From: Thermodesulfobacteriota bacterium
GTDB taxonomy: Bacteria; Desulfobacterota_D; UBA1144; Nemesobacterales; JAJCZQ01
DNA length: 64,000 nt
Reading direction: 5' to 3'
NCBI GenBank assembly: GCA_965203965.1
Contig: CBDBDR010000017.1
Location: 278,440 to 342,439, forward strand
Made by a program: the position numbers and the translations under genes. The notes beneath the pieces are model-generated. The model was not told the DNA's origin. It searched no databases and saw only the letters and a program-made list of their open reading frames with translations. This document shows positions 12,042-64,000 of this stretch, piece after piece. How positions within the stretch are numbered: the stretch's first letter is position 1; every line of letters begins with the position of its first letter.

Positions 12042-12239
12042 AGCTAACCTCCTTATTATTTTTGAAATTGATTTATTAAAACTGCATTAAATTAATATTA
12101 AAATACTTTTGACCCGATATTTCAAGTTATTTATTTTTTCACGCGAAATTAATGCAAGTTAATTTGTTCATTGTGTCTCTTTGTGCGTTGGCAAATTTCA
12201 TTGAAACTGAAGGTGATCTTGTATAACATAGTTTCTCAT

Positions 12240-13324
12240 ATGTTTAGAAAATCCAGACGGATCTCAATTGGAGGGGTGGATGTAGGAGGAGGAGCCGCGG
12301 TGTCAGTTCAATCAATGACAATAACTGATACGCGGGACGTTGAAGCTACTGTTGGTGAAATAAAAAGACTTGAAAATGCAGGTTGTGATATAGTGCGCGT
12401 TGCCGTTCCGGATATGGATGCATGTAAGGCAATAGGGAAGATAAAAAAGCAGATAAAAATACCCATAATATCAGATATACATTTTGATTATCGTCTTGCA
12501 CTTGAAGCCGTCAGGCAGGGTGTTGATGGCATGAGGATCAACCCTGGCAACATAGGTGCCAAATATAAAATAAAAGCCGTAGTGGATGCAGTAAAAGAAA
12601 GAGACATTCCTATCAGGATTGGTGTTAATTCCGGTTCACTTGAAAAAGATATACTCAAAAAGCACGGAAATCCTACGGCAGAGGCTTTGGTGGAAAGTGC
12701 TATCAGGCATGTTCATATTCTGGAAGATTTTGATTTTTACGACATTAAAATATCGGTCAAGTCAACCGATGTAAAAAAAATGATAAAGGCATACAGGCTG
12801 CTTGCAGAAAAGACCGAATATCCTCTTCACCTTGGGGTAACTGAAGCCGGAACACCAAAAATGGGAGTTGTAAAGTCATCAATTGGTATAGGAAGCCTTT
12901 TGGCAGATGGGATAGGTGATACGATCAGAGTTTCATTGACCGGCGACCCGGTTAACGAGGTGATAACTGGGATAAACGTCCTTAGATCTCTTGGAATGAG
13001 GAACAACGGTATTGAGCTTATATCATGTCCTGGTTGTGGTAGGCTGGAGATTGATCTTATAAAATTGGTCAATGACGTTGAGGAAAGAGTGGGTGGGATT
13101 GAACTGCCCAGACCTGTTAAGGTGGCAATCCTTGGCTGCGTGGTGAATGGTCCTGGTGAGGCATCAGAAGCTGACATAGGAATAGCGGGAGGTAAGGGTA
13201 AAGGTATGCTTTACAAAGATGGAAAACTTATACGTTCTTTTAAGGAAGAGGATATTGTGGATGAACTTGTTAAGGAGATAGAGATTTTCGCTGACTGCCC
13301 CTCAACGATTTCTGCCGAACATCA

Positions 13325-33108: not shown

Positions 33109-36100
33109 TTAAACATCATTTTCCGCAGTATTTAGCGTCATCGTGATTGTCTTCATGATTTGGTCAGTCTCGGACAGGATTTTGAGGATGCTTTGATAAT
33201 GCTTCACATCCTCGAAGCTGAGAACGCGACCTTTGCGGTATTTGAGCCATTTCTGGGCGGGCTGATAGCCGCCAATGTAGAAATCCCATGATACGGCGGG
33301 CGCGTCGGCAAAATACTGGCTGTCATTGATCCAGACGCAGCCATCCTCGAAACGGAACTTGCCCACCTCGTTGTCACCGTCGCCCGTGAACGGGTAGGGG
33401 GTCGCACCGATTGAGGCAGGTTCCATCAGGTGGAGCTTGCGTAACTCCGCGCCCTTGGCGGACACGTCCCAGAATTCGTCTGGGGTGGTCGGCCACGGGA
33501 TGCGGGGGAAGTCGATTTTCAGGAACTCGGCATAGGTATCGCGATAAGCGGGACAATGCAGCACGCCATAGATGTAATCGAACACCTGCATCTCGTCGGG
33601 TTTGCCATCTTCGGGATGATCAGCCAGTTTTTGAATCTTCTTGTAAAGCTTTGGATCGAAATTCACCCGCTGAGTCTGATCGAGATCTTGTTCGTCGGGG
33701 TAGAGGTAGAGGGGGGCAAAGATTGATCCAGTTGTTGCCTCTCCGCACTTCACATCTGATACATACGTTGAGCAGTAGAAATGATTAACGCCCTTTTTGT
33801 TGCTTCGCGCTGTGATGAGTGAAATATTTGGATGTAACATATGTTTAGAAACATCCATTCTAGGCCATGAAACCAACGCAGGATGCAGAGCGACTTTCCT
33901 GTTATCAAAAGGCCGAAACGCATAGGGAACGATATAATCAAGGATGTTTCCACATGGAATGCGCTGTCTCTCTGCATCAAGCTTCCAATCTCTAGTGTCC
34001 CCCGCTGGAAATTTTTTGGAAGTCTGGGAAAAGAATTTCCTGCGAATAGTTTCTGTCGAGATGCTTTCGTCGCAAATTTCTGAAATTCTCTCCTGAATTT
34101 CTGCGTTGCTTTCTCCCACGGCAACAGGGTCACGAGATGTTTGTATCCCCGTAGTATTCAAAGGGAAAATCTCTACAATTGAGAAACCATTTTGATATGC
34201 AGGAGGAGCACTTACCCCTTTCCCGTTGAAGGTGAAATATGGCTCCGACGGATTCAATTTTTCTGATGAAATGCTGATGCGGTTAAGTGACTGAAGACGC
34301 TCATATTTAAGTTCACAACTTCCCCAAAGTTCAGAGAATGTGACTTCAGAGTTTCTGATCTGAGGTTGAGGCTTCTTCTTGATTGCTATGACTATCGAAA
34401 CACCCTGTTGGATATCGAATACGTTTTCATCCTTGATGCCATTTGGCGAAATTTCACCATGTTTGGAATTTCCATGTAAATCAACGACATGAATTTTGTC
34501 GAACGTCTGCATAAGGTGCCATCTCATTCCTCGAAAAGTCGGGTTGTCGAGGTAGCCATGGTTGGTGATGAAGCCAAGAATGCCTTCGCCGTTCTTTGCG
34601 ATCAGGCTCTCCGACAGGCGGATGAACTTGACGTAGTCATCATGCAAGGAGTGCTTTCGCTCTCCAAAGTGTTTGCCATCAACGTATTTGTAGTCCTCGA
34701 TCAGATTGCTGATCCAATCGCCCATGTTCTGCGAAATCCCAGAGTATGGTGGATTCCCGATCACGCACATGATGGGCATGTCGCGCTTGATTGTGTTCGC
34801 GCCCTTGGCCTCGCGGGATAGCCATTGCGTGAAAGGCAGGGTTTGGTTGGCAGGCTCGCCTTCCTCAAGGCTGTTGGTCAGATAGACTGACAGGCGCGGT
34901 GGGTTTCCCGTGGGCTTATAACCTAGCTCGGTCAGGATCATGTCGAGTTTCATATGGCACATGGCATAGGACGCCATGAGAAGCTCGAAGCCGTGCAGGC
35001 GGGGAATCAGATCGTCCTCGATGTATTTCGACCACATCGCGGGTGCGATGTCCTGAATCTTGGGTGCGATTTGCTTGATCACCTCGGCCAAAAACGTGCC
35101 TGTTCCTGTGGCAGGATCGAGGATTTGAACGCGGTGAACATCCTTCTTGATCGCGACGGGTTTGCCCTTCCTGTCGGTCTTGCCTGTGTCCCAGTCGATG
35201 GTCACTTTCGACGTGTCAGCCAGTCCATCGGGCAGGCTGAATTCCGTCTGCAAGACCTCGTCCACGGCGCGCACGATGAAATTCACAACGGGTTCGGGTG
35301 TGTACCAAACCCCTCGTGCCTTGCGTTTATCGGGGTTATAGGCAGCGAGGAATGTCTCGTAGAAATGAAGGAAGGGATCGTTCCGGCCCGTCAGCTTACC
35401 AAACCCCTCCATCAGCTTTGCCACATCACAGGCTTGGAACACGCGCGCAAGATCATCGATGATCCACGCGATGCGGTCGTCGAGATCATAACCAGCTATG
35501 TAGCTGAATAGCGAGCGCAGAAACGGGTTGGACTTGGGTAGCAGCTCCAATGCCTCCTGGCGGCTGAATGTGTCCAGACTGGTGTCGTGGAGCCGAGCTG
35601 CAAACATCCCATAGGCGATAGTTTCAGCATAAATGTCGGCGAAATCTTCTGCCTCGATGTTGTGGATCAGGTTTTCCCTGAACGCCTCATATTGTCCTAC
35701 AAGTTCTTCTGCATCGTCAGCCAGGGTATTTTGCAGCACATCCTTGATCAGAATGGCTTTACCTGCCATTCGTTCGGCCAGTTCACGGGGGCTGGTGATC
35801 GTTTGGGGCCTCTGGGCAACAAAATCCCGCAGTAGATTTTCGAGTGTCGTGTATTGATCCGGCTTCGGTTGAATGCCCGGAGTGAGGTCGGCGATGCGTA
35901 CCGAGGCGGTCAGTTCGCCGTCACGGTAAAAATCCCAATCAAGGCAGTTGGTATAGATCAGATTGGGTAGTGCAGCGCGGTAGCGTTCCTGTTGTGCCTT
36001 GTTGCTGCCTTTGAGGCCACGAATTCCAACGGGAATATCTTTGGCCTCAACGTGGCCGATCACAATATCACCCTGCGACACGATAAAATCAGGCGCACCA

Positions 36101-36258
36101 CATTCGATCTTTTTGGGTTCGTTCAGGGCTGTCACATCATCCGAAATCGAGGACAACAGATTTTGCAAGGTGGCGCGGTATGAGTGTTCCGTTGCATTGC
36201 CCGTATTATAAATGCTGGTGACTTCTACCAGATACCCTTGAATATTCAATGCCTGCAA
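33109..36258 (-). CDS. Single-chain Type IIG/IIL restriction-modification enzyme (MmeI family): N-terminal PD-(D/E)xK nuclease, gamma-class N6-adenine methyltransferase, target-recognition domain
   Basis: N-terminus …APDFIVSQGDIVIGHVEAKD… (D…EAK). Methyltransferase motif X GVWYTPEPVV, motif I DPATGTGTFL, motif IV GNPPYSG. 1049 aa. GC-rich relative to the genome. Confidence 0.75.
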   Translation of the reverse strand: MQALNIQGYLVEVTSIYNTGNATEHSYRATLQNLLSSISDDVTALNEPKKIECGAPDFIVSQGDIVIGHVEAKDIPVGIRGLKGSNKAQQERYRAALPNLIYTNCLDWDFYRDGELTASVRIADLTPGIQPKPDQYTTLENLLRDFVAQRPQTITSPRELAERMAGKAILIKDVLQNTLADDAEELVGQYEAFRENLIHNIEAEDFADIYAETIAYGMFAARLHDTSLDTFSRQEALELLPKSNPFLRSLFSYIAGYDLDDRIAWIIDDLARVFQACDVAKLMEGFGKLTGRNDPFLHFYETFLAAYNPDKRKARGVWYTPEPVVNFIVRAVDEVLQTEFSLPDGLADTSKVTIDWDTGKTDRKGKPVAIKKDVHRVQILDPATGTGTFLAEVIKQIAPKIQDIAPAMWSKYIEDDLIPRLHGFELLMASYAMCHMKLDMILTELGYKPTGNPPRLSVYLTNSLEEGEPANQTLPFTQWLSREAKGANTIKRDMPIMCVIGNPPYSGISQNMGDWISNLIEDYKYVDGKHFGERKHSLHDDYVKFIRLSESLIAKNGEGILGFITNHGYLDNPTFRGMRWHLMQTFDKIHVVDLHGNSKHGEISPNGIKDENVFDIQQGVSIVIAIKKKPQPQIRNSEVTFSELWGSCELKYERLQSLNRISISSEKLNPSEPYFTFNGKGVSAPPAYQNGFSIVEIFPLNTTGIQTSRDPVAVGESNAEIQERISEICDESISTETIRRKFFSQTSKKFPAGDTRDWKLDAERQRIPCGNILDYIVPYAFRPFDNRKVALHPALVSWPRMDVSKHMLHPNISLITARSNKKGVNHFYCSTYVSDVKCGEATTGSIFAPLYLYPDEQDLDQTQRVNFDPKLYKKIQKLADHPEDGKPDEMQVFDYIYGVLHCPAYRDTYAEFLKIDFPRIPWPTTPDEFWDVSAKGAELRKLHLMEPASIGATPYPFTGDGDNEVGKFRFEDGCVWINDSQYFADAPAVSWDFYIGGYQPAQKWLKYRKGRVLSFEDVKHYQSILKILSETDQIMKTITMTLNTAENDV

Positions 36259-37088
36259 AATCGCGCCCCGCTGCGTTTGTTGCCATCTGTGAACGGATGA
36301 TCCTTGACGATAAAGTACAGAAGATGCGCTGCCTTTTCTTCCAAACTTGGATAAACGTCTTTTCTAAAAGCGGATTGAAACACACCGCCGACGATACCCG
36401 TCACACTCCCGCTTTCTCGCTCCTGCCCGAAAATTTCCGTAGCTTCTTTTTTTCTCACGAATTCTTTTTTTAACACCACCAAAGCCGCTTTGAGATTTTC
36501 CGCCGTAAATGTTATCTGCTTCCTACTTGCCGCCGATTTTGGTAAACTGCCTTTATCATAAGCGTCTAGTGAAAACCAAGTACCCGCAAAAATACTGACA
36601 AGCTCCAAAATGTCCTTTGCTTTGACTTCATCGCTTGCGGGCAGCAAATCTCGTACGTTGGACACTGCTTGCATAAATTTTTTGTAGTTCTTCCCGGCGC
36701 GCTTTTTGTTGATCGAGTAGCCAAGGAGCAAGTGTTGTTTGAGTGTTTGGGTCGCCCAGATACGGAATTGCGTGGCTTGTTTAGAATTTACACGGTAGCC
36801 CGCAGAGAGTATAGCGTCTAAATTGTAATATTCTATTTGACGAGTTACTTGCCTCTTCCCTTCTTTTTGAACTGTTTCCAAAACGGAAACGGTTGATTTT
36901 CTGTTGAGTTCACCTGTCCGATAAATGTTTTTCAAATGCTTTGATATAGCAGGCCTCTGGACGTCAAATAAATCGGCGATTTGTTGTAAAGTCCCCCAGA
37001 TTGTATCCTTTTCAATATCCCCGCGAAACGCTATTTCTCCGTTTTCGGTTTGATACAAAACAATGTTCGGCTTAGTTTTCATGCTCAA
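36246..37088 (-). CDS. RhuM/Fic-DOC-family protein. The ORF ends only 8 aa after the Fic motif HPFTDGNKR, so it is probably C-terminally truncated.
   Basis: Fic motif HPFTDGNKRSG at the extreme C-terminus. The ORF overlaps the RM gene start by 13 nt. Confidence 0.55.
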   Translation of the reverse strand: MSMKTKPNIVLYQTENGEIAFRGDIEKDTIWGTLQQIADLFDVQRPAISKHLKNIYRTGELNRKSTVSVLETVQKEGKRQVTRQIEYYNLDAILSAGYRVNSKQATQFRIWATQTLKQHLLLGYSINKKRAGKNYKKFMQAVSNVRDLLPASDEVKAKDILELVSIFAGTWFSLDAYDKGSLPKSAASRKQITFTAENLKAALVVLKKEFVRKKEATEIFGQERESGSVTGIVGGVFQSAFRKDVYPSLEEKAAHLLYFIVKDHPFTDGNKRSGARFCRH

Positions 37089-52574: not shown

Positions 52575-52722
52575 GCCCCGTTGTCAAGTATGGTAAATTG
52601 CCGAGATGATCTATGACGTTTCAGGTTCTAACAAAATATGGGTTCAGAAAAAATAATACAGTAATAAAGTTTCTACAAATTTTCTCTTGACACACGGTTA
52701 TTTGTGCTTAAATTCTGGAATA

Positions 52723-53310
52723 ATGCAAAAGAAACTCGGTGATATTGCTACTGTTCAAATGGGATTTCCCTTTCGTTCACGTATTGAACCAGACGAGGAT
52801 GGAAATGTCTCTATTATTCAAATGAGCAATTTAGGAGAAAATAGTTTGAAGGCTCATACGGATCTGCTCAAGGTTTACCTAAAGAATATATCTCATAAGC
52901 ACTTAGTGAAACAAAAAGATTTGATCTTTCGTTCAAGGGGAAAAACAATAAATGCAGTGATAATTGATAAAGAAATTGAGCGAGCAGTCGTAGCGGCACC
53001 GTTAATTAGAATAAGAGTTACGGAAAAGGACGTTATTCCGGAATATCTTCTCTGGTTCATGAATCAGCCATTATCTCAAGCATTTTTGCACGGCAGAGCC
53101 ACCGGAACTTCAATGCCTATGATCGGTAAGTCAACTCTTGAAGATCTGCGGATTACTATCCCTGATCTTGAAACTCAAAGGCAAATCGTAATACTTGCTC
53201 ATTTATCGGACAAAGAGCAAAAACTAATGAAACGGTTGGCTAAGGCAAATGGTAGTTTAGTTCAAAAAACTTTGAAACAGTTGGTAACAGATCCTAAGAA
53301 GTCTTATTAG
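52723..53310 (+). CDS. hsdS: Type I RM specificity subunit, half-size (single target-recognition domain plus conserved region)
   Basis: ~195 aa with one target-recognition domain and the conserved helical region …LETQRQIVILAHLSDKEQKLMKRL… It is immediately upstream of hsdM. Confidence 0.7.
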   Translation: MQKKLGDIATVQMGFPFRSRIEPDEDGNVSIIQMSNLGENSLKAHTDLLKVYLKNISHKHLVKQKDLIFRSRGKTINAVIIDKEIERAVVAAPLIRIRVTEKDVIPEYLLWFMNQPLSQAFLHGRATGTSMPMIGKSTLEDLRITIPDLETQRQIVILAHLSDKEQKLMKRLAKANGSLVQKTLKQLVTDPKKSY

Positions 53311-53322
53311 AGGAGCAGAGAA

Positions 53323-54837
53323 ATGACAAATGGGACAATAGATCAAAAAAACATAGACAATGCTGCATGGTCTGCCTGCAACACTTTTCGTGGAGTGATG
53401 GACGCGTCCGTTTACAAGGACTACATACTCGTGATGTTGTTTCTCAAATATGTTTCGGATGTTTGGAAGAGCCATTATGAGAAATACAAAAAGCAATACG
53501 GAGACCACAAAGAGCGCATCAACCGCCTTCTTAAAAATGAGCGGTTTGTTTTGCCTAAAGACAGCAGTTTTTACAACCTGTATGAGAATCGTTCTGCTTC
53601 AAATATCGGTGAACTTATAAACATTGCGTTGACCGCATTTGAAGACGAAAACAAAGAGAAACTGGAGGGTGTTTTCCGCAACATTGACTTCAATAGCGAA
53701 ACAAATTTCGGCAAAACAAAAGACCGCAATCGCCGTCTTAAAACACTACTTGAAGATTTGAACAAACCAGAGTTGGATATGAGTCCAGATAATGTTACAG
53801 AAGACATTATCGGCAATACATACATCTATCTGATAGAGCGTTTTGCGTCCGATGCTGGCAAAAAAGCGGGAGAGTTCTACACACCTCACAAGGTTTCGGA
53901 GTTGGTAGCAAAGTTATGCGACCCCAAGCCCGGAGCACGCATTTGCGACCCTACTTGTGGTTCTGGAGGGCTTCTAATTGAAGCCGCGCGCGAAGTGGGT
54001 GGCGATGATTACTCTCTTTGTGGGATGGAAGTCAACGGAGGTACTTGGGCGCTTTGTCGGATGAATATGTTCCTTCACGGGATGGATTCAGCACGAATTG
54101 AATGGTGCAATACATTAACAGCCCCCGGACTCGTGGAAACCGACCGCCTGATGAGGTTTGACAATATTGTCGCAAATCCACCTTTCTCGTTGGATAAGTG
54201 GGGAGCGGAAGAAGCGGGAAACGACATTTACAAGCGTTTTTGGCGAGGAATTCCTCCCAAGTCTAAGGGGGATTACGCTTTCATCAGTCACATGGTGGAG
54301 GCAGCTCTGGAAAAGAAAGGGCGCATTGCGGTTGTTGTCCCACATGGTGTTTTATTCAGGGGCGCGGCAGAGGGGCGTATCCGTCGCCATTTAATAGAAG
54401 AAAATCTGCTGGATGCCGTCATCGGCTTACCGGGTAATCTTTTTCCAACCACGTCCATTCCGGTTGCTATCTTGGTGTTTGACCGTTCACGCGAGACAGG
54501 TGGTGCAAATGAGAAACTCAAGGATGTGTTGTTCATTGATGCAAGCCGTGAGTATGAGTCCGGAAAAAATCAGAACAAGCTACTGGACAAGCATATAGAA
54601 AAGATCGTTGACACATATAAAAAGCGTAAAAGTGTTGACAAATATGCGCATTTGGCAAAACCAGAAGAGATTGAAGAAAACGATTTCAACCTGAACATCC
54701 CGCGTTATGTGGACACCTTTGAGGAAGAAGAGGAGATAGATATAGACGCGGTGCAGCGAGAAATAGATCAACTGGAAAAAGAACTGTCCAAAGTGCGGAT
54801 GGAGATGGCGAAAAAAATGAAGGAGATTAAAAGATGA
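53323..54837 (+). CDS. hsdM: Type I RM N6-adenine DNA methyltransferase subunit
   Basis: N-terminal HsdM domain, motif I (DPTCGSGGLL), motif IV (NPPF). Confidence 0.9.
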   Translation: MTNGTIDQKNIDNAAWSACNTFRGVMDASVYKDYILVMLFLKYVSDVWKSHYEKYKKQYGDHKERINRLLKNERFVLPKDSSFYNLYENRSASNIGELINIALTAFEDENKEKLEGVFRNIDFNSETNFGKTKDRNRRLKTLLEDLNKPELDMSPDNVTEDIIGNTYIYLIERFASDAGKKAGEFYTPHKVSELVAKLCDPKPGARICDPTCGSGGLLIEAAREVGGDDYSLCGMEVNGGTWALCRMNMFLHGMDSARIEWCNTLTAPGLVETDRLMRFDNIVANPPFSLDKWGAEEAGNDIYKRFWRGIPPKSKGDYAFISHMVEAALEKKGRIAVVVPHGVLFRGAAEGRIRRHLIEENLLDAVIGLPGNLFPTTSIPVAILVFDRSRETGGANEKLKDVLFIDASREYESGKNQNKLLDKHIEKIVDTYKKRKSVDKYAHLAKPEEIEENDFNLNIPRYVDTFEEEEEIDIDAVQREIDQLEKELSKVRMEMAKKMKEIKR

Positions 54838-55055
54838 GCAAGATGCCAACAAATAAACATCATCAAACATTTGAGGATGCTTGTCGCCGTACGGAAAACG
54901 GCGCCGAATTTTGGTCTGCACGCGAACTTTTGTCCATTCTCGATTATGGAAGTTGGGATAAATTCAAGGCAGTCATTCATAAGTCTATAAGTGCTTGTGA
55001 GAATTCGGGCATGGTTTCCTCAGACCATTTTTCCCAGATGGGAAAAATGGTCTGA
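54834..55055 (+). pseudogene. DinD-like (DNA-damage-inducible protein D family) N-terminal fragment, 73 aa
   Basis: …HHQTFEDACRRTENGAEFWSARELLSILDYGSWDKFKAVIHKSISACENSG… resembles DinD N-termini. ATGA overlap with the hsdM stop; truncated. Confidence 0.4.
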
Positions 55056-55175: not shown

Positions 55176-55745
55176 TTGAATTTTATGTACACATTAAGCA
55201 AACATATACATAATTTTGAGAGCATTCACCCGTTCCCTGACGGCAATGGTCGCATTGGTCGCGTGCTGAACGTGCTGTATCTGACGCACAAGGGGCTTTT
55301 AGACGCTCCCATCCTTTATTTGAGCCGAGCGATCAACCGCACAAAGCCAGACTACTACCGCTTATTGCAAGCCGTGCGTGAAGAGGGCGCATGGGAAGAA
55401 TGGATCATCTACATACTGAGTGCCGTTACAGAAACGGCAAAATCAACCTTGCAACTTGTATCGGGTATTCGGGAACTGATGGCTGAACACAAAAAACTTA
55501 TACGAGATGAACTGCCGAAAATCTACTCTCAGGACTTGTTGAATAATCTGTTTCGCAACCCCTATACGCGTATTGACTACGTGGCGAAAGACCTAACGGT
55601 TGACCGCAGAACAGCACGCAAGTATCTCAAACAATTAACTGAAAAGGGGATTGTGGAGGAAGTAAAGGCGGGGAGGAACAACTACTACATAAACAAAAAA
55701 CTGGTTGACCTGTTTGTCAGTGTCTCGGTGGAAGGGGATCAGTGA
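55176..55745 (+). pseudogene. Fic-family protein lacking the N-terminal half (begins just before the HPFPDGNGRIGR motif)
   Basis: Canonical Fic motif HPFPDGNGRIGR at residues 18-29, followed by a C-terminal wHTH-like region. A functional Fic fold needs ~100 aa upstream of the motif. Confidence 0.55.
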
Positions 55746-57895
55746 TGAGTAGGAAAGGGGAAAAGGAACGAGCGTTGCCCGATGGGTGGCAGGAAGTGAG
55801 GCTGGGGGACATAATGGAATTCAAAAATGGATTGAATACAGAGAAAGGAAACTATGGTAAGGGTGTAAAATTTGTGAACGTAATGGATGTTTTCAAGTTT
55901 AACTATCTTTATGAACATAATGTTGTTGGCTCTGTTCAAGTTAGTGAAAAAAACAGAATTGAATATTCAGTTAAATATGGGGATATCTTGTTTAATAGGA
56001 CATCTGAAATACTTAATGAGATTGCTATGTCATCTGTATATCTCGATGAGAAAAAAATAATCTTTGGAGGTTTTGTTATTAGAGGACGCCAAAAAATTAC
56101 TGCTCTTACTCCTCGATTTTCTATTTGTTGTCTTCAATCCAATAAAGTACGAAAAGAATTAATAAGACGAGGGCAAGGTGCCGTCCGAGCGAACATTGGA
56201 CAAAAAGATCTAGCGAAAATTCCTGTTGTTATTCCACCGCTCCCCGAACAAAAAGCCATCACCTCTTTACTGGAAACATGGGACACGGCGATTGAGAAAA
56301 CTGAAGCATTGATTGAGGCAAAGGAAAAGCGGTTCAAGTGGTTGCTGAAAACACTCATCAGCAATCAGCAAGACAATCCTGAATGGCGGGAAGTGAGGTT
56401 GGGGGATGTTACGAAGGTTATTGTAGGCCAGTCTCCAAAAGGGATTTTCTATAATACAGAGGGTGAGGGCATGCCCTTCTATCAAGGTAAATCTGAATTT
56501 GGGAAAATCTACATTAACAATCCTAATATGTGGACTACTCAAACAACTAAAACGGCAGAGAAAGGCGATATTCTTATGTCCATTAGAGCTCCTGTTGGGT
56601 CAATTAACCGTACAAATAACAAAATTTGCATTGGCCGAGGGCTTGCTAGTATTAGGGTTCATAGCATCAAACGAACGTTCTTATTTTTTTACTTGCAGTT
56701 TATCAAAAGCCAAATAATAGGAAATGGTGGCTCTATATTCAATTCGATTACTAAGCGTCAAGTTGAACAAATTCCAATTCTTTGCCCCCCAGTTTCTGAA
56801 CAAAAAGCCATTGCTGCTGTACTAAACACGGTACAACGTGAAATTGATCTACTGGAACAACTCACCCAACAATACCGCACACAAAAGCGCGTGCTGATGC
56901 AGAGATTATTGACAGGAGAATGGAGGACAAAGATGAATCGTTATATTCTGAGAATGGGCACTTACGAGTGTCCTAAAACAGTAATTAAAAAAGAAAGATT
57001 TGAACAATTAAAGGAAGCGAGAAATATCTTGTCAAAAGCATTGGTTTTTGAGGGGAATTACGAGATTATAGTGCATAATTACCTTGAGTTGGAAAAAGAA
57101 TTGATGGGAATTACTATTGAAGATATTGGTAGAACTTATTATAGTTATGATGATTTCTTCAATTATACACTTTCTTCTAATATCAGAGTATCAAACCTTC
57201 TGAATTCGGCAAAATTTTACATTGATACACTTTCGCAAACTCTCGAGAACTGCTTTCAAAATGAGGAAGTTTCTCCTGATATAAAACAAATAATCAAAGA
57301 GGATGAGGGCAACTCGCTTCTTGAATTTGTTTATGAACTAAGGAACTATCTTCAGCATGTTGATTTGCCAGTGCATAACACCTTAATAAATAGAAGATGG
57401 ACAGATGACAATCTTATGGAATATTCCACGCATATCTTTTCTTCAAAGAAATATCTTTCAGAGGATGAAAAGTCAGAATCAATACTTAAAAAAATGGAAG
57501 AACAAAAAATAATGAAAGAAGAAGAAATAAACCTAAACCTTACCATTAGACACTATGTAGAATTCATCAGTAAAATGCATATTCAAACGAGATCTAAGAT
57601 AGAAAAAAGAGTTAATGAGGCAAGAGATTGCATAGAATCTACGATTAAGGAATATTTAGACGAACATAGGATTAAGGAAAAGGAATATTTAGATGAAGAT
57701 GGGAAGTTTATAGGTTTTTTACATGCTTTCCATTTCAACCATAGTGAAATAGAAGAGAAAATTCCTTTGTTTCTGGATTACGACGATGTTCGTCTTAATC
57801 TAATACGTAAGAACAACAAAGAACTGGTTAATCTACATAAACGATATGTTACAACACGAGTTGATTCAGTAAATAAGAAGGAAATATCTAAATAA
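55742..57895 (+). CDS. hsdS: Type I RM specificity subunit HsdS (two target-recognition domains, aa ~1-395) fused in-frame to a ~320-aa Lys/Glu-rich C-terminal domain with an Rx4H (HEPN-like) motif; a candidate Abi_2-like abortive-infection domain
   Basis: Conserved HsdS central and C-terminal regions (…YRTQKRVLMQRLLTGEWRTK). There is no stop where the downstream repeat copies of this region carry their TGA, and the frame continues into MNRYIL… The motif ELRNYLQH sits at 57341-57358. Confidence 0.7.
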   Translation: MMSRKGEKERALPDGWQEVRLGDIMEFKNGLNTEKGNYGKGVKFVNVMDVFKFNYLYEHNVVGSVQVSEKNRIEYSVKYGDILFNRTSEILNEIAMSSVYLDEKKIIFGGFVIRGRQKITALTPRFSICCLQSNKVRKELIRRGQGAVRANIGQKDLAKIPVVIPPLPEQKAITSLLETWDTAIEKTEALIEAKEKRFKWLLKTLISNQQDNPEWREVRLGDVTKVIVGQSPKGIFYNTEGEGMPFYQGKSEFGKIYINNPNMWTTQTTKTAEKGDILMSIRAPVGSINRTNNKICIGRGLASIRVHSIKRTFLFFYLQFIKSQIIGNGGSIFNSITKRQVEQIPILCPPVSEQKAIAAVLNTVQREIDLLEQLTQQYRTQKRVLMQRLLTGEWRTKMNRYILRMGTYECPKTVIKKERFEQLKEARNILSKALVFEGNYEIIVHNYLELEKELMGITIEDIGRTYYSYDDFFNYTLSSNIRVSNLLNSAKFYIDTLSQTLENCFQNEEVSPDIKQIIKEDEGNSLLEFVYELRNYLQHVDLPVHNTLINRRWTDDNLMEYSTHIFSSKKYLSEDEKSESILKKMEEQKIMKEEEINLNLTIRHYVEFISKMHIQTRSKIEKRVNEARDCIESTIKEYLDEHRIKEKEYLDEDGKFIGFLHAFHFNHSEIEEKIPLFLDYDDVRLNLIRKNNKELVNLHKRYVTTRVDSVNKKEISK

Positions 57896-58030
57896 TAAAT
57901 GACTTCATCTCAATTATTATAAGATTGAACAAAATTGTTTGATCTTATAAATTCTTGAGGTCTATGAAAAGCCTTGGAATTAACAAGACCACAGGCTACC
58001 GAATTGGCTCAACGGCTCAAAAAGAAATAA

Positions 58031-58355
58031 ACTTGCTCAAACAATTATCTGAACAATACCGCACTCAAAAACGCGGGCTGATGCAGAAGTTGCTGACTGG
58101 AGAATGGAGGGTAAAGATATGATTACAAAAATCACGATGAACAATGTTACCAGTTTTAAAGAGAAAACCAGATTCATCTTTAACCGCTTGGGTTATGAAT
58201 TTTCTAATGCGGTTCAAACGCCCATTAAAGGCAGAGTTAGCCCTTCTACGTAAGGTCAAAGTTCTGGTTGGATCAGTGCGTCTTCTTTCTGCCATTATGG
58301 GTTTTACCTTTGAGCTTCATCCAAGCCACAAAACGTGGTAATGTAGTATAATTTT
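58031..58355 (+). repeat. Direct repeat R1 core (325 bp): an hsdS 3'-end copy (…QYRTQKRGLMQKLLTGEWRVKI*) plus a 45-codon 5' stub of an AAA_15/RloA-like ATPase gene (MITKITMNNVTSFKEKTRFIF…)
   Basis: ~93% identical to 59816-60140. A further homologous stretch (58440-58700 vs 60230-60480) extends each copy to ~650 bp. Confidence 0.8.
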
Positions 58356-58794
58356 CATTTACTAATAGTATAGTTTTTTCTGTATAATAATTTTCAGCAA
58401 TTCAGTATAGAAATAACGTTTTCTACATGATGAAACAAAGTTTGATCATTTGGAATTATACTGTTCCATGATCAGGTCTATAAAGAGTTTTACAATGGGT
58501 GAAGCCATTCCTCAGACTCAGTCGGCGGAGTTGTATTGGCGGTTACGAGAGCCAAGCGGGCAAAACCACGCTGGCGTATCGTACGAAAATGTTCAATACA
58601 TTGAACAAAATTGTTTGATCTGATAAATTCTTGAGGTCTATGAAAAGCCTTGGAATTAACAAGACCACAGGCTACTGAACTGGCTCAACAGCTCAAAAAG
58701 AAATAGACTTGCTCAAACAATTAGCAGAACGATACCGCACTCAAAAGCGCGGGCTGATGCAGAAGTTGCTGACTGGGGAGTGGAGAGTGAAGAG

Positions 58795-59742
58795 ATGAGC
58801 ACATCTTTTAAAATATTAAGCATAGATGGTGGAGGAGTGCGAGGAATTCTTCCCGCCAAGATACTGAAGCTCATGGAAGCCGAGCTCGGCATAGACGTAC
58901 ATGAAACCTTTGATCTCATTGTTGGCACTAGCACTGGTAGTATCATAGCTGGGGCAATCGCCGTAAAGTACAAATTGGCTAAATTAGTAAGTGATTACAA
59001 TGAAAATGCTCCGAAAGTTTTCAAGAAAAGATGGAATTTCATGGGGCTTTACAGATCTAAATACAGTTCAGCCTTCCTTGAAAGTTTTCTTCGTAAAATA
59101 TTTGGTGAGGTTACATTGGGAGAAATAGAAAAACCGCTCATTCTTAATGCTACAAATATCAGCGATGGTAATCTTCATGTTTTCAAGTCATCGTATCAAA
59201 AAAAACAACGAGAGGGGGAAGAGGAGCAGGTTTATAACAGGGATGGAGGAGTACCTTTGTACAAAGCAACTCTAGCCTCTTGTTCGGCACCAATTTATTT
59301 TGATCCGGTGAAGATAATATTTGATCCGGTGGATAAAGAAGAAAAACTTATTTGTGACGGGGGTATTTGGGCTAATAATCCTTCCTTGGTTGGATACAGT
59401 GACGCTATCAGGAATTTCAAGAATGTTGGAACCGATAATGTCAAGATCTTGTCTTTGGGAACTGGACAAACCAAGCAAATTTACCAACCAGCAAAAGCAT
59501 GGGGATACTTAACGGGATGGAAACATACGAAATTGATAGACTTCTCCATATCATGTCAGACAGAGTTTCCTAAAAATGTTTTGGAACTTATTGATTTAGA
59601 TAAAATTCTCAGGATCAACCCTTCTATTGATAATTACGAGATTGACAATTACCAAAGCATCCCAAAGTTAATGGAACTGGCTAAAAAGGAATTCAATAGT
59701 AGCAGTGAAAAAATTTCAAATTTTCTTAACATAAGAAGATAG
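58795..59742 (+). CDS. Patatin-like phospholipase (PNPLA family)
   Basis: Oxyanion hole SIDGGGVRGI, nucleophile elbow GTSTG (GxSxG), catalytic Asp motif CDGGIWANNP. ~316 aa. The start codon (GTG) overlaps the last hsdS 3'-end copy (copy B). Confidence 0.8.
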   Translation: MSTSFKILSIDGGGVRGILPAKILKLMEAELGIDVHETFDLIVGTSTGSIIAGAIAVKYKLAKLVSDYNENAPKVFKKRWNFMGLYRSKYSSAFLESFLRKIFGEVTLGEIEKPLILNATNISDGNLHVFKSSYQKKQREGEEEQVYNRDGGVPLYKATLASCSAPIYFDPVKIIFDPVDKEEKLICDGGIWANNPSLVGYSDAIRNFKNVGTDNVKILSLGTGQTKQIYQPAKAWGYLTGWKHTKLIDFSISCQTEFPKNVLELIDLDKILRINPSIDNYEIDNYQSIPKLMELAKKEFNSSSEKISNFLNIRR

Positions 59743-59815
59743 GAGACAAAAATTACAGTTTACGAGGAAAAATTTGTTCTCTTTTCTGATAGGTATTCCT
59801 GTCAAAAAGAAATGG

Positions 59816-60140
59816 ACTTGCTCAAACAATTAGCAGAACGATACCGCACTCAAAAACGCGGTTTGATGCAGAGGTTGTTGACTGGAGAATGGAGGGTGAA
59901 GATATGATCACAAAGATCACGATGAACAACATCACCAGTTTTAAAGAGAAAAGCAGATTCATCTTTAACCGCTTGGGTTATGAATTTTCTAATGAGGTTC
60001 AAACGCCCATTAAAGGCAGAGTTAGCCCTTCTACGTAAGGTTAAAGTTCTGGTTAGATCAGTGCGTCTTCTTTCTGCCATTATGCGTCTTACCTTTGAGC
60101 TTCATCCAAGCCACAAAACGTGGTAATGTAGTATAATTTT
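59816..60140 (+). repeat. Direct repeat R2 core (325 bp), copy of R1: hsdS 3' end (…LLTGEWRVKI*) plus the ATPase 5' stub
   Basis: See R1. Together R1 and R2 bracket the patatin gene. Confidence 0.8.
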
Positions 60141-60408
60141 TTCCACCCAATATGGAGAAAAAACTGTATAGAAATTTTTACTGATTGTTGTATAAAAATA
60201 GAATTATAAGGCTGAATTTTCGGCATTATATTGCTCCATGATCAGGTCTATAAAGAGTTTTACAATGAGTGAAGCCATTCCTCAGACTCAGTCGGCGGAG
60301 TTGTATTGGCGGTTACGAAAGCCAAGCAGGCAAGACCACGCTGGCGTACCGTACGAAAATGTTCAGTACATTGAACAAAATTGTTTCATCTGATAAACTT
60401 TCACATCT

Positions 60409-60687
60409 ATGAAAAGCCTGGAATTAACAAGACCACAGGCTACCGAACTGGCTCAACGGCTCAAAAAGCCTTGCCGGTTTATTCAGTCCATATCGGGGGC
60501 GAAGCAGAAAAGAAAAGTCGCTTTGCTGATATTGGGTGAGGTGCAGAAGTTTCCACACTGGTCAGCGATTGTAAAATATCTTTGGGATGAAGATAGTCGC
60601 ATGAAAAGAATGGTGGCGGCAAAGTGCCTGTTTCGTTTCCCAGATTGGACGTTTTTTGCAAAATATTCAAAACTGCTCAGCAGTTGA
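60409..60687 (+). pseudogene. Degenerate copy of the DUF4143 AAA ATPase gene (61018-62223) with two large internal deletions; the Walker A region is lost
   Basis: N-terminus MKSLELTRPQATELAQRLKKPCRFIQSISGAKQ matches the intact gene, then jumps to …KRKVALLILGEVQKFPHW…SRMKRMV…FPDWTFFAKYSKLL. Confidence 0.6.
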
Positions 60688-60726
60688 TCGTTTCCTGTCA
60701 ACGCCTGCGGAACATTGGTTAAATTG

Positions 60727-60897
60727 ATGCCTGATTTTCTATTTGACGAAAAAAGCCTCTCCCAGATCCCAGCTTTACAGCAGTTGATCAATCCAGTGCA
60801 ACAATTGGTTTTTGGGATGAATGGAAGAAAGAAAAGGATGGACAAAGGAATAAAAGAATCTATTGAAACATTAAGAAAACAGAGTAAATCTCAATGA
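60727..60897 (+). pseudogene. Duplicated 5' fragment of hsdR (first ~21 codons, MPDFLFDEKSLSQIPALQQLI) followed by unrelated sequence
   Basis: Near-identical to the hsdR start at 62223 (MPDFLSDEKCLSQIPALQQLI). The preceding ~60 nt also match the 3' end of the intact ATPase gene. Confidence 0.5.
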
Positions 60898-60946
60898 AAA
60901 TAACACTAAAACAGGGGAAGCAAGCACTGCTTTTAAATAACAAAAA

Positions 60947-60986
60947 TGTTCAATACATTGAACATTTTTGTTCAATGTATTGAACA
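60947..60986. promoter_or_regulatory. Two tandem operator-like palindromes (TGTTCAAT-ac-ATTGAACA and TGTTCAAT-gt-ATTGAACA, centres 22 bp apart) 32 bp upstream of the ATPase gene
   Basis: Perfect 8-bp inverted arms. Single copies or remnants precede each ATPase 5' fragment (58595-58612, 60362-60379, partial at 57927-57945). Confidence 0.4.
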
Positions 60987-61017
60987 AAATTGTTCAGTCT
61001 GATAATCTTTTTAGGCG

Positions 61018-62223
61018 ATGAAAAGTCCGAAATTCATAAGACCTCAAGCCACCGAATTATTGCGACGACTCAAAGAGCCTCGCCGGTTTATTCAATCCAT
61101 ATCGGGGGCGAGGCAGATCGGCAAAACAACCCTTGCCCTACAAGTGGCAGAGCAAAGCCGATTGCCTTATCACTTTGCAAGTGCTGATAGGCCGACGCTT
61201 CGCGCCGGTGATGGATGGATCGTGTCGCAATGGAAGGAGGCGCGACATCTGGCGGAACAATCAAAAAGGAAAGGCGCTTTGCTGATATTGGATGAGGTGC
61301 ATAAGGTTCCACACTGGCCAGCGACTGTAAAAGGTCTTTGGGATGAAGATACTCGCATGAAAAGAATGGTGAAGGTGGTGCTGCTCGGTTCAGCACCGCT
61401 GTTGATCGGGCGAGGACTTACGGAAAGCCTCGCCGGGCGTTTTGAAACCGTGTATCTGCCACATTGGAGTTTTCCCGAGATGCGAGATGCCTTCGGATGG
61501 GATTTGCAACAATATCTTTTTTACGGTGCCTATCCGGGAGCCTCACCCTTCATAAAACAGCCGGCGCGCTGGTCGCGCTACATAAAGAACTCTCTTATAG
61601 AAACAACCATTTCCCGCGATGTGCTTTTATTTTCCCCTGTGGACAAACCGGCTTTGCTTAGGCAATTGTTCGAGATGGGTTGTTCCTATTCGGGGCAGGT
61701 ACTCTCTTACAGAAAACTTGCAGGACTGCTTCAGGATAAAGGTAACGTTACCACCCTTGCGCATTACCTTGACTTGCTCGCCGGAGTCGGCACGGTTGCC
61801 GGGTTGCAAAAATATGCGGGTAGCTTCGGGGCACGCCGGCGTTCCATACCCAAACTTCAAGTCTTCAACACTGCCCTGATCACCGCGCAATCTGGGATGA
61901 CCTGGCAGGAGGTGTTCAAAGATGGACGACTGCTGGGGCGGCTTACGGAGTCGGCCGTGGGAGCTCATCTGCTCAATGCAGCCACTGGCGGGGAGTGTGA
62001 ATTATTCTATTGGCGAGATAACAATCGCGAAGTAGATTTTGTTTTGCGCAGAGGAAAGAAGCTTGTTGCCATAGAAGTAAAAAGCGGTAAAATGCCTGTT
62101 TCGTTTCCCGGATTGGATGCTTTTTCCAAAATATTCAAAACTGCTCAGCAGTTGATTGTTGGTGAAGGCGGAATTCCCATTGATCGTTTCCTGTCAACAC
62201 CTGCGGAACATTGGTTAAATTGA
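61018..62223 (+). CDS. AAA+ ATPase of the AAA_14/DUF4143 family
   Basis: Walker A SGARQIGKTTLA, Walker B LLILDEVHK, C-terminal DUF4143-like region. Strongly GC-rich compared with its surroundings. Its stop overlaps the hsdR ATG. Confidence 0.8.
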   Translation: MKSPKFIRPQATELLRRLKEPRRFIQSISGARQIGKTTLALQVAEQSRLPYHFASADRPTLRAGDGWIVSQWKEARHLAEQSKRKGALLILDEVHKVPHWPATVKGLWDEDTRMKRMVKVVLLGSAPLLIGRGLTESLAGRFETVYLPHWSFPEMRDAFGWDLQQYLFYGAYPGASPFIKQPARWSRYIKNSLIETTISRDVLLFSPVDKPALLRQLFEMGCSYSGQVLSYRKLAGLLQDKGNVTTLAHYLDLLAGVGTVAGLQKYAGSFGARRRSIPKLQVFNTALITAQSGMTWQEVFKDGRLLGRLTESAVGAHLLNAATGGECELFYWRDNNREVDFVLRRGKKLVAIEVKSGKMPVSFPGLDAFSKIFKTAQQLIVGEGGIPIDRFLSTPAEHWLN

Positions 62224-64000
62224 TGCCTGATTTTCTATCTGACGAAAAATGCCTCTCCCAGATCCCAGCTTTACAGCAACTGATAAATCTGGGCTATGAG
62301 TATCTGCCACCTGAACAGGCGTTTCAGGAACGCAATAGCAAATACGGCAATGTTTTGCTGGAAAACATACTGCGAGACCAACTCAAAAAAATAAACCGCA
62401 TTAATTATAGAGGCAGAGAATACCTTTTCAGTGAGGAGAACATTCAGTCTGCCATTGAGAAGATCAAAAACATTCCATATGACGGTTTGATAAAAACAAA
62501 TGAAAAGATCTACGATCTTTTGACGCTTGGCACGTCGCTTAAGCAGACCATTGAGGGCGATTCCAAAAGTCACACACTTCGCTATATTGACTGGGAAAAT
62601 ACGAATGCAAATGTTTTTCACGCCACTGCGGAGTTTTCGGTTGAACGTTCCCGGAGTTCTGAAACTGTAAGACCGGACATTGTGCTGTTTGTAAACGGCA
62701 TTCCTCTTGTTGTGATTGAGTGCAAAACGTCCGGAGTTGCCGTGGATGAAGGCGTTTCTCAGATGATCCGCAATCAGGGAGAGGATCATATTCCTCGCCT
62801 TTTTACTTATGTGCAGTTGGTAATGGCTGTAAATAAGAATGAGGCAAAATACGCGACCGCCGGAACTTCAAAGAAATTCTGGAGCGTCTGGAAAGAGTTA
62901 GAAGATCACGAAGATGAAACAAAAACCATTGTGGATCAACCGCTTTCAGATGAGAACAAGAATGTTCTTTTTTCTTCCAATGAATTTGCTTATGCCCGTG
63001 CGCATTTTGATAAAATTGAGAGCCAAGGTGGACGTCTTGTTACGGAACAAGATAAAGCAGTTCATAGCCTGTGCCGTCCTGAGCGCCTGCTTGAGATCGT
63101 TTACGGGTTTACAATTTTTGATAGTAAAACAAAAAAAATTGCCAGATACCAACAGTTCTTTCTTGTTCGCTCGGCAATTAAAAACATCAAAACAAAAAAC
63201 AGTGAGGGTGTGAGAAAAGGTGGGATCGTGTGGCACACGCAAGGTTCTGGTAAATCCATAACAATGGTTATGCTCACGCGAGCCCTTGTGATGGATCCGG
63301 AACTGAAAAACACGCGGATCATTCTTGTTACAGACCGCAAAGATCTGGACGAACAACTCGGCAACACCTTTGCTGCTTGCGGTTTGAACAAAGAACGCGC
63401 CACTTCGGGACGTGATCTGGTCAAGCATATAAAACGCAAGACGGACATTATCACCACGTTGATAAACAAATTTGAAACGGCATCTGCTGCCGAAAAATAC
63501 GTAGATGATTCACCTGATATTATCGCTCTTGTGGACGAGAGCCACCGCACAAATTTCGGGGAATTGTCCGCAAATATGAGGAGGATGCTTCCAAAGGCAT
63601 GCTTTATAGGTTTTACCGGCACTCCGTTGCTAAAAAAAGAGAAAAACAGTTTTGCGCGCTTTGGGGAGTTGATTGAGCCGTCTTATCCGGTCAGAGCAGC
63701 CATAGATGACAAACAGGTTGTCCCTCTGATCTACGAGGGTCGGCATGTGGAGATAAAACAGGATAAAGAAGCCATTGATAAATGGTTTGCCCGTCATACT
63801 GAGGGGCTTTCCGATAAACAGAAAACTGATCTAAAGAAAAAATATTCACGTGCTGCAAAACTGAACAATTCCGATAGGGTCATCTATATGACGGCTTTTG
63901 ACATTAGCGAGCATTTTCGCGCCAATTGGAAAGAGACGGGAGAGATGGGATTTAAGGCTCAACTTGTGGCTCTGAACAAGGCAACTGCTCTTAAATATCA
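62223..64000 (+). CDS. hsdR: Type I restriction enzyme R subunit HsdR, N-terminal ~592 codons; continues beyond the window
   Basis: The reading frame is open to the window end. HsdR N-terminal nuclease region (…IVLFVNGIPLVVIECKTSG…) and SF2 helicase motifs (TQGSGKS, VDESHR). Absent from the ORF track because there is no stop in the window. Confidence 0.85.
   Translation, partial: MPDFLSDEKCLSQIPALQQLINLGYEYLPPEQAFQERNSKYGNVLLENILRDQLKKINRINYRGREYLFSEENIQSAIEKIKNIPYDGLIKTNEKIYDLLTLGTSLKQTIEGDSKSHTLRYIDWENTNANVFHATAEFSVERSRSSETVRPDIVLFVNGIPLVVIECKTSGVAVDEGVSQMIRNQGEDHIPRLFTYVQLVMAVNKNEAKYATAGTSKKFWSVWKELEDHEDETKTIVDQPLSDENKNVLFSSNEFAYARAHFDKIESQGGRLVTEQDKAVHSLCRPERLLEIVYGFTIFDSKTKKIARYQQFFLVRSAIKNIKTKNSEGVRKGGIVWHTQGSGKSITMVMLTRALVMDPELKNTRIILVTDRKDLDEQLGNTFAACGLNKERATSGRDLVKHIKRKTDIITTLINKFETASAAEKYVDDSPDIIALVDESHRTNFGELSANMRRMLPKACFIGFTGTPLLKKEKNSFARFGELIEPSYPVRAAIDDKQVVPLIYEGRHVEIKQDKEAIDKWFARHTEGLSDKQKTDLKKKYSRAAKLNNSDRVIYMTAFDISEHFRANWKETGEMGFKAQLVALNKATALKY

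Follow-up and report, generated by a model that had tools for sequence, protein, structure and literature searches.

The window, a 64,000-nucleotide stretch of a Thermodesulfobacteriota bacterium (contig CBDBDR010000017.1, positions 278,440 to 342,439), carries a gene for a Type I specificity subunit, hsdS, that runs without a stop codon into a second coding region, here called the tail. Both lie in an operon with the order half-size hsdS, hsdM, a Bro-N fragment, a truncated SoFic gene, hsdS::tail, a series of cassettes, a DUF4143 ATPase gene (PADLOC candidate PDC-S01) and hsdR, and the view of an earlier note on this DNA, that the locus is a Type I restriction-modification (R-M) operon with embedded defence genes, was borne out. 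Coordinates are those of the window and refer to its plus strand unless stated otherwise. The fused frame is uninterrupted from 55742 (GTG, 717 amino acids (aa)) or 55745 (ATG, 716 aa) to 57895, with neither a stop nor a further frameshift in its 716 codons, and across the join it reads ...LLTGEWRTK-MNRYILRM..., so that the read-through from HsdS into MNRYILRM... was likewise confirmed. The hsdS gene proper (55745..56932) has two target recognition domains (TRDs) and central and C-terminal conserved helices, and its own stop codon is absent. The first 397 residues make up a full HsdS, with two TRDs matched by Methylase_S (Pfam E 4.9e-35), and the PADLOC Specificity_I model matches this part near end-to-end (E 8.7e-62; for example, 12-399 against 2-409 of 411). 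Two TRDs, conserved helical regions between them, and hsdM and hsdR in the same operon together identify it as a Type I HsdS. The tail itself (56933..57895, 320 aa) is a putative HEPN-like RNase, and its relatives are usually stand-alone genes starting at the same ATG.

The junction between hsdS and the tail

At the junction (56927..56932), two nucleotides (nt) are absent between 56928 and 56929. In a six-way alignment, the window has this gap against five of five comparators: the sister-strain contig L001, the next relative L002 and three internal copies of the hsdS 3′ end. The flanks of L001 are 96-99% identical to the window in DNA, and the gene order rsmE, cobA-hemD, half-size hsdS, hsdM, SoFic remnant, hsdS is common to both. 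The gap falls directly after GGAGGAC and 4 nt upstream of the tail ATG; the window reads AC--AAAGATGAAT, the junction letters of L001 are ACTCAAAGATGA and those of L002 are ATCTAAAGATGA. The site has changed from ACTCAAAG, the stop-bearing form of 56927-56932, to ACAAAG. The fused junction carries the letters GGAGGACAAAGATGAAT and GGAGGACAAAGATG, and the alternative unfused form is GGAGGACTCAAAGATG. Because the two nucleotides are missing, the hsdS stop is lost and both genes stand in one frame. In L001, hsdS (392 aa) ends ...GEWRTQR-TGA, and this TGA overlaps the ATG of a 325-aa gene (ACTCAAAGATGAAT); in L002, the junction in front of the tail homologue P0002 is ATCTAAAGATGAAC, with TAA-AG-ATG. 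As the same gap separates the window from both orthologues and from the three relics, two separate, overlapping genes represent the ancestral arrangement, from which the in-frame fusion is derived.

A Shine-Dalgarno sequence, GGAGG (56922..56926), is contained in the conserved GEWR codons 6 nt before the tail ATG, and a GGAGG or GGAGA element precedes the ATG at all six junctions. The downstream part is a functional unit distinct from HsdS, and both an ATG and a Shine-Dalgarno site belong to it. The earlier note's suggestion of a recently decoupled pair was right about the pairing and wrong about the direction: separate, probably translationally coupled genes are ancestral, and the fusion is a derived singleton. 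Its other suggestion, a genuine HsdS-HEPN fusion as a designed architecture, did not hold. The closest orthologues, in L001 and L002, are unfused, the best 150 family representatives measure 215-328 aa, and the fused 716-aa protein is alone in its cluster and comes from one metagenome-derived 1.5-Mb contig, so that a conserved HsdS-effector architecture is not supported. No second copy of the fusion was found with a 120-aa junction-spanning peptide among 5.8 billion proteins, and the junction DNA pattern gave eight matches in metagenomes, all of them chance Shine-Dalgarno-plus-ATG contexts of unrelated genes (for example, a clpC-like gene). In a third strain (L020), the contig ends before hsdS. 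A slip-strand phase-variable site was considered and rejected, as the deleted TC/CT is not within a simple repeat.

Over ~9 kb aligned to L001, all remaining indels inside the compared genes are multiples of 3, and the neighbouring long genes (hsdM, hsdR, ATPase and patatin) are intact; judged by these alignments, the assemblies do not look indel-noisy. The two strains do differ strongly in HsdS. The window protein (55745-56932) and that of L001 (8826-10004) are 38% identical, although the HsdM proteins are 97% identical, and the DNA match between the two hsdS genes is confined to the conserved helices, so that both TRDs have been exchanged between otherwise near-identical strains.

The tail family, its motif and predicted fold

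A word-indexed search with the tail returned three close or moderately close homologues only, all three of them separate genes: P0001 (77% identity, 325 aa) on contig L001 (10001-10978), P0002 (51% identity, 276 aa), which in L002 lies directly after hsdS and before the hsdR pieces, and P0003 (29% identity). A profile search of 1.84 billion cluster representatives then gave 2745 relatives at E<=1e-3 and 334 at E<=1e-30, a family of at least 2745 clusters at 50% identity. The best 150 of these representatives align from about residue 1 and have no N-terminal extension. The tail is its own gene, a member of a large, unannotated, stand-alone family of ~300-aa proteins, and not a domain of HsdS. 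Against Pfam, PADLOC, NCBIfam and PHROGs it matches no model, with noise only, and the family is missing from PADLOC v2, the PDC models included. Genome contigs searched with the single tail protein yielded nothing; searched with an alignment they yielded seven distant stand-alone members, none of them next to hsdS. Nothing was found in metagenome contigs with alignment A1 or in plasmids by tblastn, and among phages tblastn found one 'hypothetical protein' of Marinobacter phage PS3. The neighbours of more distant members are housekeeping genes, transposases, a gene for an HNH endonuclease or a Type IIG R-M system, the last with an SLFN/AlbA_2 ATPase. A gene for a 517-aa protein with SLFN/AlbA_2 and HATPase_c_4 domains, absent from the window, is also found in L001 (2381-3934), between rsmE and cobA-hemD, and in L007 a relative of this gene is located close to a distant member of the tail family.

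The fused copy retains all family invariants. It scores 253 bits against a hidden Markov model (HMM) built from 100 other members, and the unfused orthologues score 256 and 260 bits. With P0002 as outgroup, 14 derived substitutions fall on the window copy and 21 on the L001 copy; by these sequence measures, the fused tail is not visibly decaying. Between the window and L001, the ratio of nonsynonymous to synonymous substitution rates (dN/dS) of the tail is 0.69, and for hsdM, the half-size hsdS and the patatin gene it is 0.21-0.26. The two tail copies also differ by an 18-nt in-frame repeat in a Lys/Glu-rich segment (EEMGEEMG in L001).

The ELRNYLQH segment to which the earlier note had pointed is present, with R137-N-Y-L-Q-H142 encoded at 57341..57358 and ending a predicted helix (128-142). 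An R-x4-H in one 320-aa protein is not improbable by chance. The motif becomes meaningful because its R and H are invariant in two alignments comprising 153 family members (53 and 100 sequences), most of which are 22-46% identical to their own alignment's reference. In the 53-member alignment (A3), E54, R137 and H142 are invariant; in a 32-member alignment (A4), E54, F132, R137, N138, Q141 and H142; and in the 100-member alignment (A5), the R and H equivalent to R137 and H142. N138, Q141, D98, F132 and a few other residues are conserved to at least 90% across alignments. Two of the conserved residues are acidic: E54 (codon 57092..57094), in predicted helix 1, invariant in A3 and A4 and conserved to at least 90% in A5, and the nearly invariant D98 (codon 57224..57226), in predicted helix 2, a candidate for the helix-2 acidic residue of HEPN domains. 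A polar residue after the motif R is typical of HEPN proteins, whose endoribonucleases are metal-independent, depend on the R and H and usually act as dimers.

We predicted the structure of the tail with AlphaFold from a 32-sequence alignment (predicted local distance difference test, pLDDT, 84.3; predicted template modelling score, pTM, 0.81). Four long helices are predicted (20-68, 78-108, 128-142 and 201-244), the motif (137-142) ends the third of them, and a short helix (114-123) is inserted between helices 2 and 3. A β-sheet is predicted to form from the N-terminus, the C-terminal strands and a hairpin that follows the motif (149-171). HEPN domains are defined as four-helix up-down bundles in which helix 3 ends with an R-x4-6-H and helix 2 carries an acidic residue; helices 2 and 3 are often separated by an insert (PMC3710099). 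The model fits this description, so that the R-x4-H of a helical protein, as first noted, is now a conserved motif in a predicted topology compatible with HEPN, and the prediction shows a four-helix bundle. PF18733 (HEPN_LA2681) gave sub-threshold matches in 3 of 53 and 2 of 100 members (best E 6.4e-4), and it is the sole Pfam family with weak matches recurring in two independent member sets; the family consensus sequences gave no HEPN match in Pfam, PF18733 included.

The more specific label of the earlier note, an Abi_2-type effector, was not upheld. A profile search of the tail against Abi_2 and HEPN families gave nothing above threshold, and the tail matches no Abi_2 model nor any other HEPN, Abi, PrrC or RloC model (Pfam, PADLOC, NCBIfam, PHROGs). 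Abi_2 (PF07751) was rejected, as neither the tail nor the full open reading frame (ORF) matches it at E<=1, and it was also unmatched by two family consensus sequences and eight members (E<=10) and by all 153 members (E<=0.1). The PADLOC AbiD and AbiF models likewise had no match (E<=1 for the tail). The tail is certainly not an Abi_2 protein. A PrrC/RloC anticodon nuclease was rejected too, the tail having neither a P-loop/ABC domain nor a PADLOC PrrC or RloC match.

The surrounding operon and its cassette array

The operon opens with a half-size hsdS (52687..53310, 207 aa) with one TRD (Pfam Methylase_S E 5.3e-14). It is kept in all three strains, 96% identical in L001 and 97% in L020. Its product may serve as an alternative specificity subunit, possibly as a homodimer, which could leave the long hsdS partly redundant. 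This gene is followed by hsdM (53323..54837, 504 aa; Pfam N6_Mtase E 3.3e-100, HsdM_N E 4.3e-28; 97% identical in L001), a Bro-N-like fragment of 73 aa (54834-55055) and the remnant of a SoFic (Fic/DOC) gene (55176..55745), which encodes the C-terminal 189 aa (Pfam SoFic-like_C E 2.2e-26). The Fic profile matches the remnant over its last 30 positions only, and the PADLOC SoFic model over 188-358 of 361. SoFic is truncated in L001 as well and intact in L020 (366 aa, 11930-13030).

Downstream of the tail, the last embedded gene encodes an AAA_14/DUF4143 ATPase (61018..62223), the PADLOC candidate PDC-S01, and its stop overlaps the ATG of hsdR. An identical ATPase occurs in the read sets SRR23871865 and SRR23871859. 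The 5′ part of hsdR (62223..64000) runs open to the window end with 507 stop-free codons and 60-64% identity to the HsdR pieces of L002. We therefore rejected the idea that hsdR is missing; it was not listed as an ORF because it is open past the window end. A promoter and terminator scan of 55-62.4 kb gave background level. Elsewhere in the window, a second restriction system lies on the minus strand (33109-37088), with a Type ISP-like enzyme of 1049 aa (N6_Mtase and Type_ISP_C) and an adjacent RhuM-Fic gene.

Between the tail and the ATPase gene, the last ~107 nt of hsdS recur in three copies, each ending in a TGA that overlaps the next ATG. The earlier note had read all three as GEWRVKI followed by this overlap; the overlap is present in all three and GEWRVKI in two, the copy before the patatin gene reading GEWRVKR*. 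Relic 2 (58012..58118) ends in ATGA at the start of a decayed cargo gene, and its left side is a copy of the ATPase promoter and 5′ end. Relic 3 (58688..58794) is the one with GEWRVKR*, its TGA overlapping the patatin ATG, and relic 4 (59797..59903) precedes a second copy of the decayed cargo. Each relic is joined on its left to a copy of the palindrome near the promoter together with the initial ~60 nt of the DUF4143 ATPase gene, and the join point is identical each time (...GGCTCAAAAAG|AAATA...). Because the relics are joined to ATPase 5′ ends, the cargo genes are bounded by composite repeats of ATPase 5′ and hsdS 3′ ends (57924-58127, 58600-58803 and 59709-59912, within an array at 57900-61010). 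An open chimeric leader ORF (57955-58122) exists only at the first relic; the second has a stop (TAC TGA).

The cargo between the repeats consists of the tail, a decayed N-terminal ATPase-like fragment in two copies and the patatin gene. The decayed cargo (58120-58340 and 59905-60125) starts MITKITMNNVTSFKEKT..., a start that, from its sequence, resembles the N-terminus of an AAA/ABC-type ATPase, and its frame breaks after ~40 codons. The patatin-like phospholipase gene (58795..59742, 99% identical in L001) scores 206 bits against the NCBIfam CBASS_lipase model (cutoff 200) and matches a PADLOC phospholipase effector (E 2.5e-81). Neither a CD-NTase nor a cyclase gene was seen in the operon, so that the phospholipase may be an orphan effector of the CapV-like kind within a Type I R-M operon. 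The intact ATPase-hsdR pair is immediately preceded by an internally deleted copy of the DUF4143 ATPase gene (60360-60793), and there the ATPase 3′ end is duplicated together with the first ~60 hsdR codons (60715-60897). An AT-rich palindromic element (TGTTCAATACATTGAACA, then AAATTGTT) occurs in about five copies (57907-57952, 58583-58628, 60353-60398 and 60940-61007), every one just upstream of the ATPase start or of partial ATPase copies; it is a possible operator or promoter moving with the cassettes. L001 (11000-16100) has the same array with an extra cassette that encodes a 280-aa protein, a KAP NTPase and a 114-aa protein. Overall, the array looks like a tandem accumulation of cassettes by recombination through conserved flanks. 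In the simplest history, one illegitimate join would have duplicated the interval from the hsdS 3′ end to the ATPase 5′ end, cargo would then have been swapped by homologous exchange through the conserved flanks, and unequal crossing-over would have enlarged the array.

Origin and possible role of the fusion

Taken together, these data make it probable that the tail is a HEPN-like effector embedded in an R-M operon and joined to HsdS by accident, whether through a real mutation or an assembly error. In relatives, the ATG at the hsdS stop and the GGAGG in the last hsdS codons argue that the tail gene is co-transcribed and probably translationally coupled with hsdS, and of the several defence genes that lie between hsdS and hsdR it would come first. 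We lean towards a HEPN-like fold for the tail, whose most likely activity would be that of a HEPN-type metal-independent RNase, a toxic or abortive-infection effector that may form an RNA-targeting second line of defence. On this reading the fusion is a recent lineage-specific accident and not a selected architecture. Each full-length HsdS would carry a tail, essentially linker-free; with the Shine-Dalgarno site and ATG still in place, translation from the internal start probably continues to yield free tail protein. By analogy with known systems, we infer that the tail is coupled to the R-M complex.

Several observations weigh against this reading. No HEPN or Abi family in Pfam, PADLOC, NCBIfam or PHROGs gives a significant match; a search of the family profile against PDB sequences returned nothing at E<=10, and Foldseek of the tail model against the PDB nothing at E<=0.001. 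The PF18733 matches are below threshold and vanish when 40 trimmed or 30 full-length members are concatenated. The dN/dS of the tail could reflect relaxed constraint rather than an arms race. A location in a Type I operon is confined to the three closest members (window, L001 and L002), which makes a PrrC-like coupling an analogy and not a family trait, and among the members examined the family has no conserved partner gene and varied neighbourhoods. As to the gap itself, a real mutation is modestly favoured over an artefact.

The main doubt about activity is that the tail may not be an RNase at all; it might instead, for example, be a regulator that binds nucleic acids or nucleotides, act in anti-restriction or immunity, or serve as a scaffold. 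The absence of a significant HEPN profile match and the negative Foldseek search, in which vinculin-tail and FAT-type bundles score equally well, would fit this, as would the many members that lie among housekeeping genes with no other defence genes and the lack of a conserved antitoxin-like partner. However, a (near-)invariant R-N-x-x-Q-H at the end of predicted helix 3, together with the conserved acidic residue in predicted helix 2, is the HEPN catalytic signature; HEPN_LA2681 matches recur in two independent member sets; and one phage encodes a member, while others are found near a Type IIG R-M system with an SLFN/AlbA_2 ATPase, near transposases and near a gene for an HNH endonuclease. 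We regard a non-RNase tail as the lesser possibility, though a sizeable one. Much less probable is that the fusion marks the start of pseudogenisation in a decaying locus that no longer needs the long HsdS and the tail. The operon does contain a truncated SoFic gene, a Bro-N fragment, an internally deleted ATPase copy, decayed cargo and hsdS-3′ relics, the tail has its dN/dS of 0.69, and the half-size hsdS could make the long one dispensable. Nevertheless, all 716 codons are free of stops and further frameshifts, the fused copy has fewer derived substitutions than the unfused one in L001 (14 against 21) at equal HMM scores, and hsdM and hsdR are intact.

How the fusion arose also allows different answers. 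It is somewhat unlikely that the gap is an assembly or consensus error and that in the organism the hsdS stop overlaps the ATG as in L001, with no fusion protein. Such an error would be one single 2-nt indel in a metagenome-derived contig, the names of related contigs (ctg..._15x_l and _2x_l) are of a long-read style and show low coverage, the fusion is not reproduced in any second assembly or read set searched, and a tail that has not decayed is consistent with no biological change. Consensus errors tend to concentrate in homopolymers or simple repeats, however, and the change from ACTCAAAG to ACAAAG is in neither; the multiple-of-three indels of the other compared genes and the intact hsdM, hsdR, ATPase and patatin genes speak against an error as well. 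At the other extreme, the fusion might be real and adaptive, tethering an HEPN-like effector to HsdS under R-M control as a covalent version of PrrC-EcoprrI masking. The RNase would then be silent while M2S or R2M2S is intact and be released or activated once a phage anti-restriction factor disrupts the complex; with one tail per complex, it might, for example, dimerise only on collision or disruption of complexes. The tail does occupy the prrC position (PMC3710099), the fused copy keeps all invariant residues and its full family HMM score, and the half-size hsdS (52687-53310) could supply ordinary specificity and leave the long S subunit specialised. Yet the fusion is a singleton, with hsdS and the tail being separate genes in both L001 and L002; the 150 best family representatives all lack an N-terminal extension; a tail-like domain is not part of any PADLOC Specificity_I model (the tail alone matches none); the last HsdS helix runs into the first tail β-strand with essentially no linker; and the R-M fusions in the HEPN census are only to nuclease, helicase or ATPase subunits (PMC3710099). 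An adaptive tether is therefore very improbable. The accidental fusion of an embedded HEPN-like effector remains our preferred explanation.

On that explanation, the system is of a known kind, and what is new is the uncatalogued family and a singleton fusion allele. PrrC and RloC have an N-terminal ABC/SbcC-like NTPase followed by a C-terminal HEPN domain, and to our knowledge PrrC has never been found covalently fused to HsdS. The tail, lying between hsdS and hsdR, is thereby at the prrC position of EcoprrI. Like the tail gene, prrC, which encodes the anticodon nuclease of that Type Ic R-M system, is an R-x4-H gene in this interval, and its product is likewise proposed to be a second line of defence that targets RNA and is kept silent by, or coupled to, the R-M complex (PMC3710099). 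Unlike PrrC, the tail has no ABC/SbcC-like NTPase domain and no similarity to the PADLOC PrrC and RloC models, it is ~300 aa long with a β-sheet subdomain, most of its family lies outside R-M operons, and here it is covalently fused to HsdS. LA2681-like HEPN proteins (PF18733) share with the tail, as predicted, a four-helix up-down bundle in which helix 3 ends with an R-[polar]-x3-H, helices 2 and 3 are separated by an insert and helix 2 has a conserved candidate acidic residue, and 5 of 153 members match them weakly. These matches are all below the gathering threshold and the family consensus sequences are unmatched; the LA2681 family is described as fused to or in operons with TPR proteins, none of which was seen near the tail-family members examined.

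Abi_2, AbiD and AbiF proteins often occur in R-M neighbourhoods. Like the tail, they are single-gene, HEPN-type candidate abortive-infection effectors, whereas the tail lacks a Pfam Abi_2 or PADLOC AbiD/AbiF match at E<=1. HEPN-MNT toxins (SO_3166 5yep, 7ae2 and 8xdj) are 9-16% identical to the tail, which differs from them in having no MNT partner gene, more than twice the length and extra β-strands. The setting itself is familiar. Neighbourhoods that combine R-M, HEPN and DOC/RhuM genes are described in the HEPN census (PMC3710099), and the tail's operon contains Fic/DOC and Bro-N/RhuM-like remnants, a patatin gene and PDC-S01 (Pfam, PADLOC). The hsdS-hsdR interval is an embedding hotspot, as shown by DarTG2 (PMC12255303) and TgvAB (PMC11411939), and a 'guilt by embedding' preprint describes defence genes embedded between hsdS and hsdR. 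The window cargo has the same embedding site as DarTG2 of enteropathogenic Escherichia coli (EPEC), TgvAB of V. cholerae and the PADLOC PDC candidates, and it comprises several genes, PDC-S01 among them. Unlike theirs, its cargo is separated by repeated hsdS-3′ relics joined to the ATPase 5′ end.

The fusion teaches little unless it is confirmed by reads and functional. If it were a true functional fusion, a specificity or modification-side subunit would for the first time be seen fused to a HEPN domain, and the locus would serve as a natural experiment on PrrC-type latency. The array is a compact example of cargo build-up at the hsdS-hsdR hotspot, common to two strains with differing cargo, and the window, L001 and L002 together provide a 'guilt-by-embedding' link of the tail family to Type I R-M. 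The more durable result is the family itself, with a strictly conserved RNxxQH on a confidently predicted helical bundle and no database model. If its members are HEPN RNases, they would constitute a single-gene defence or toxin family that is not yet catalogued and that present defence finders miss.

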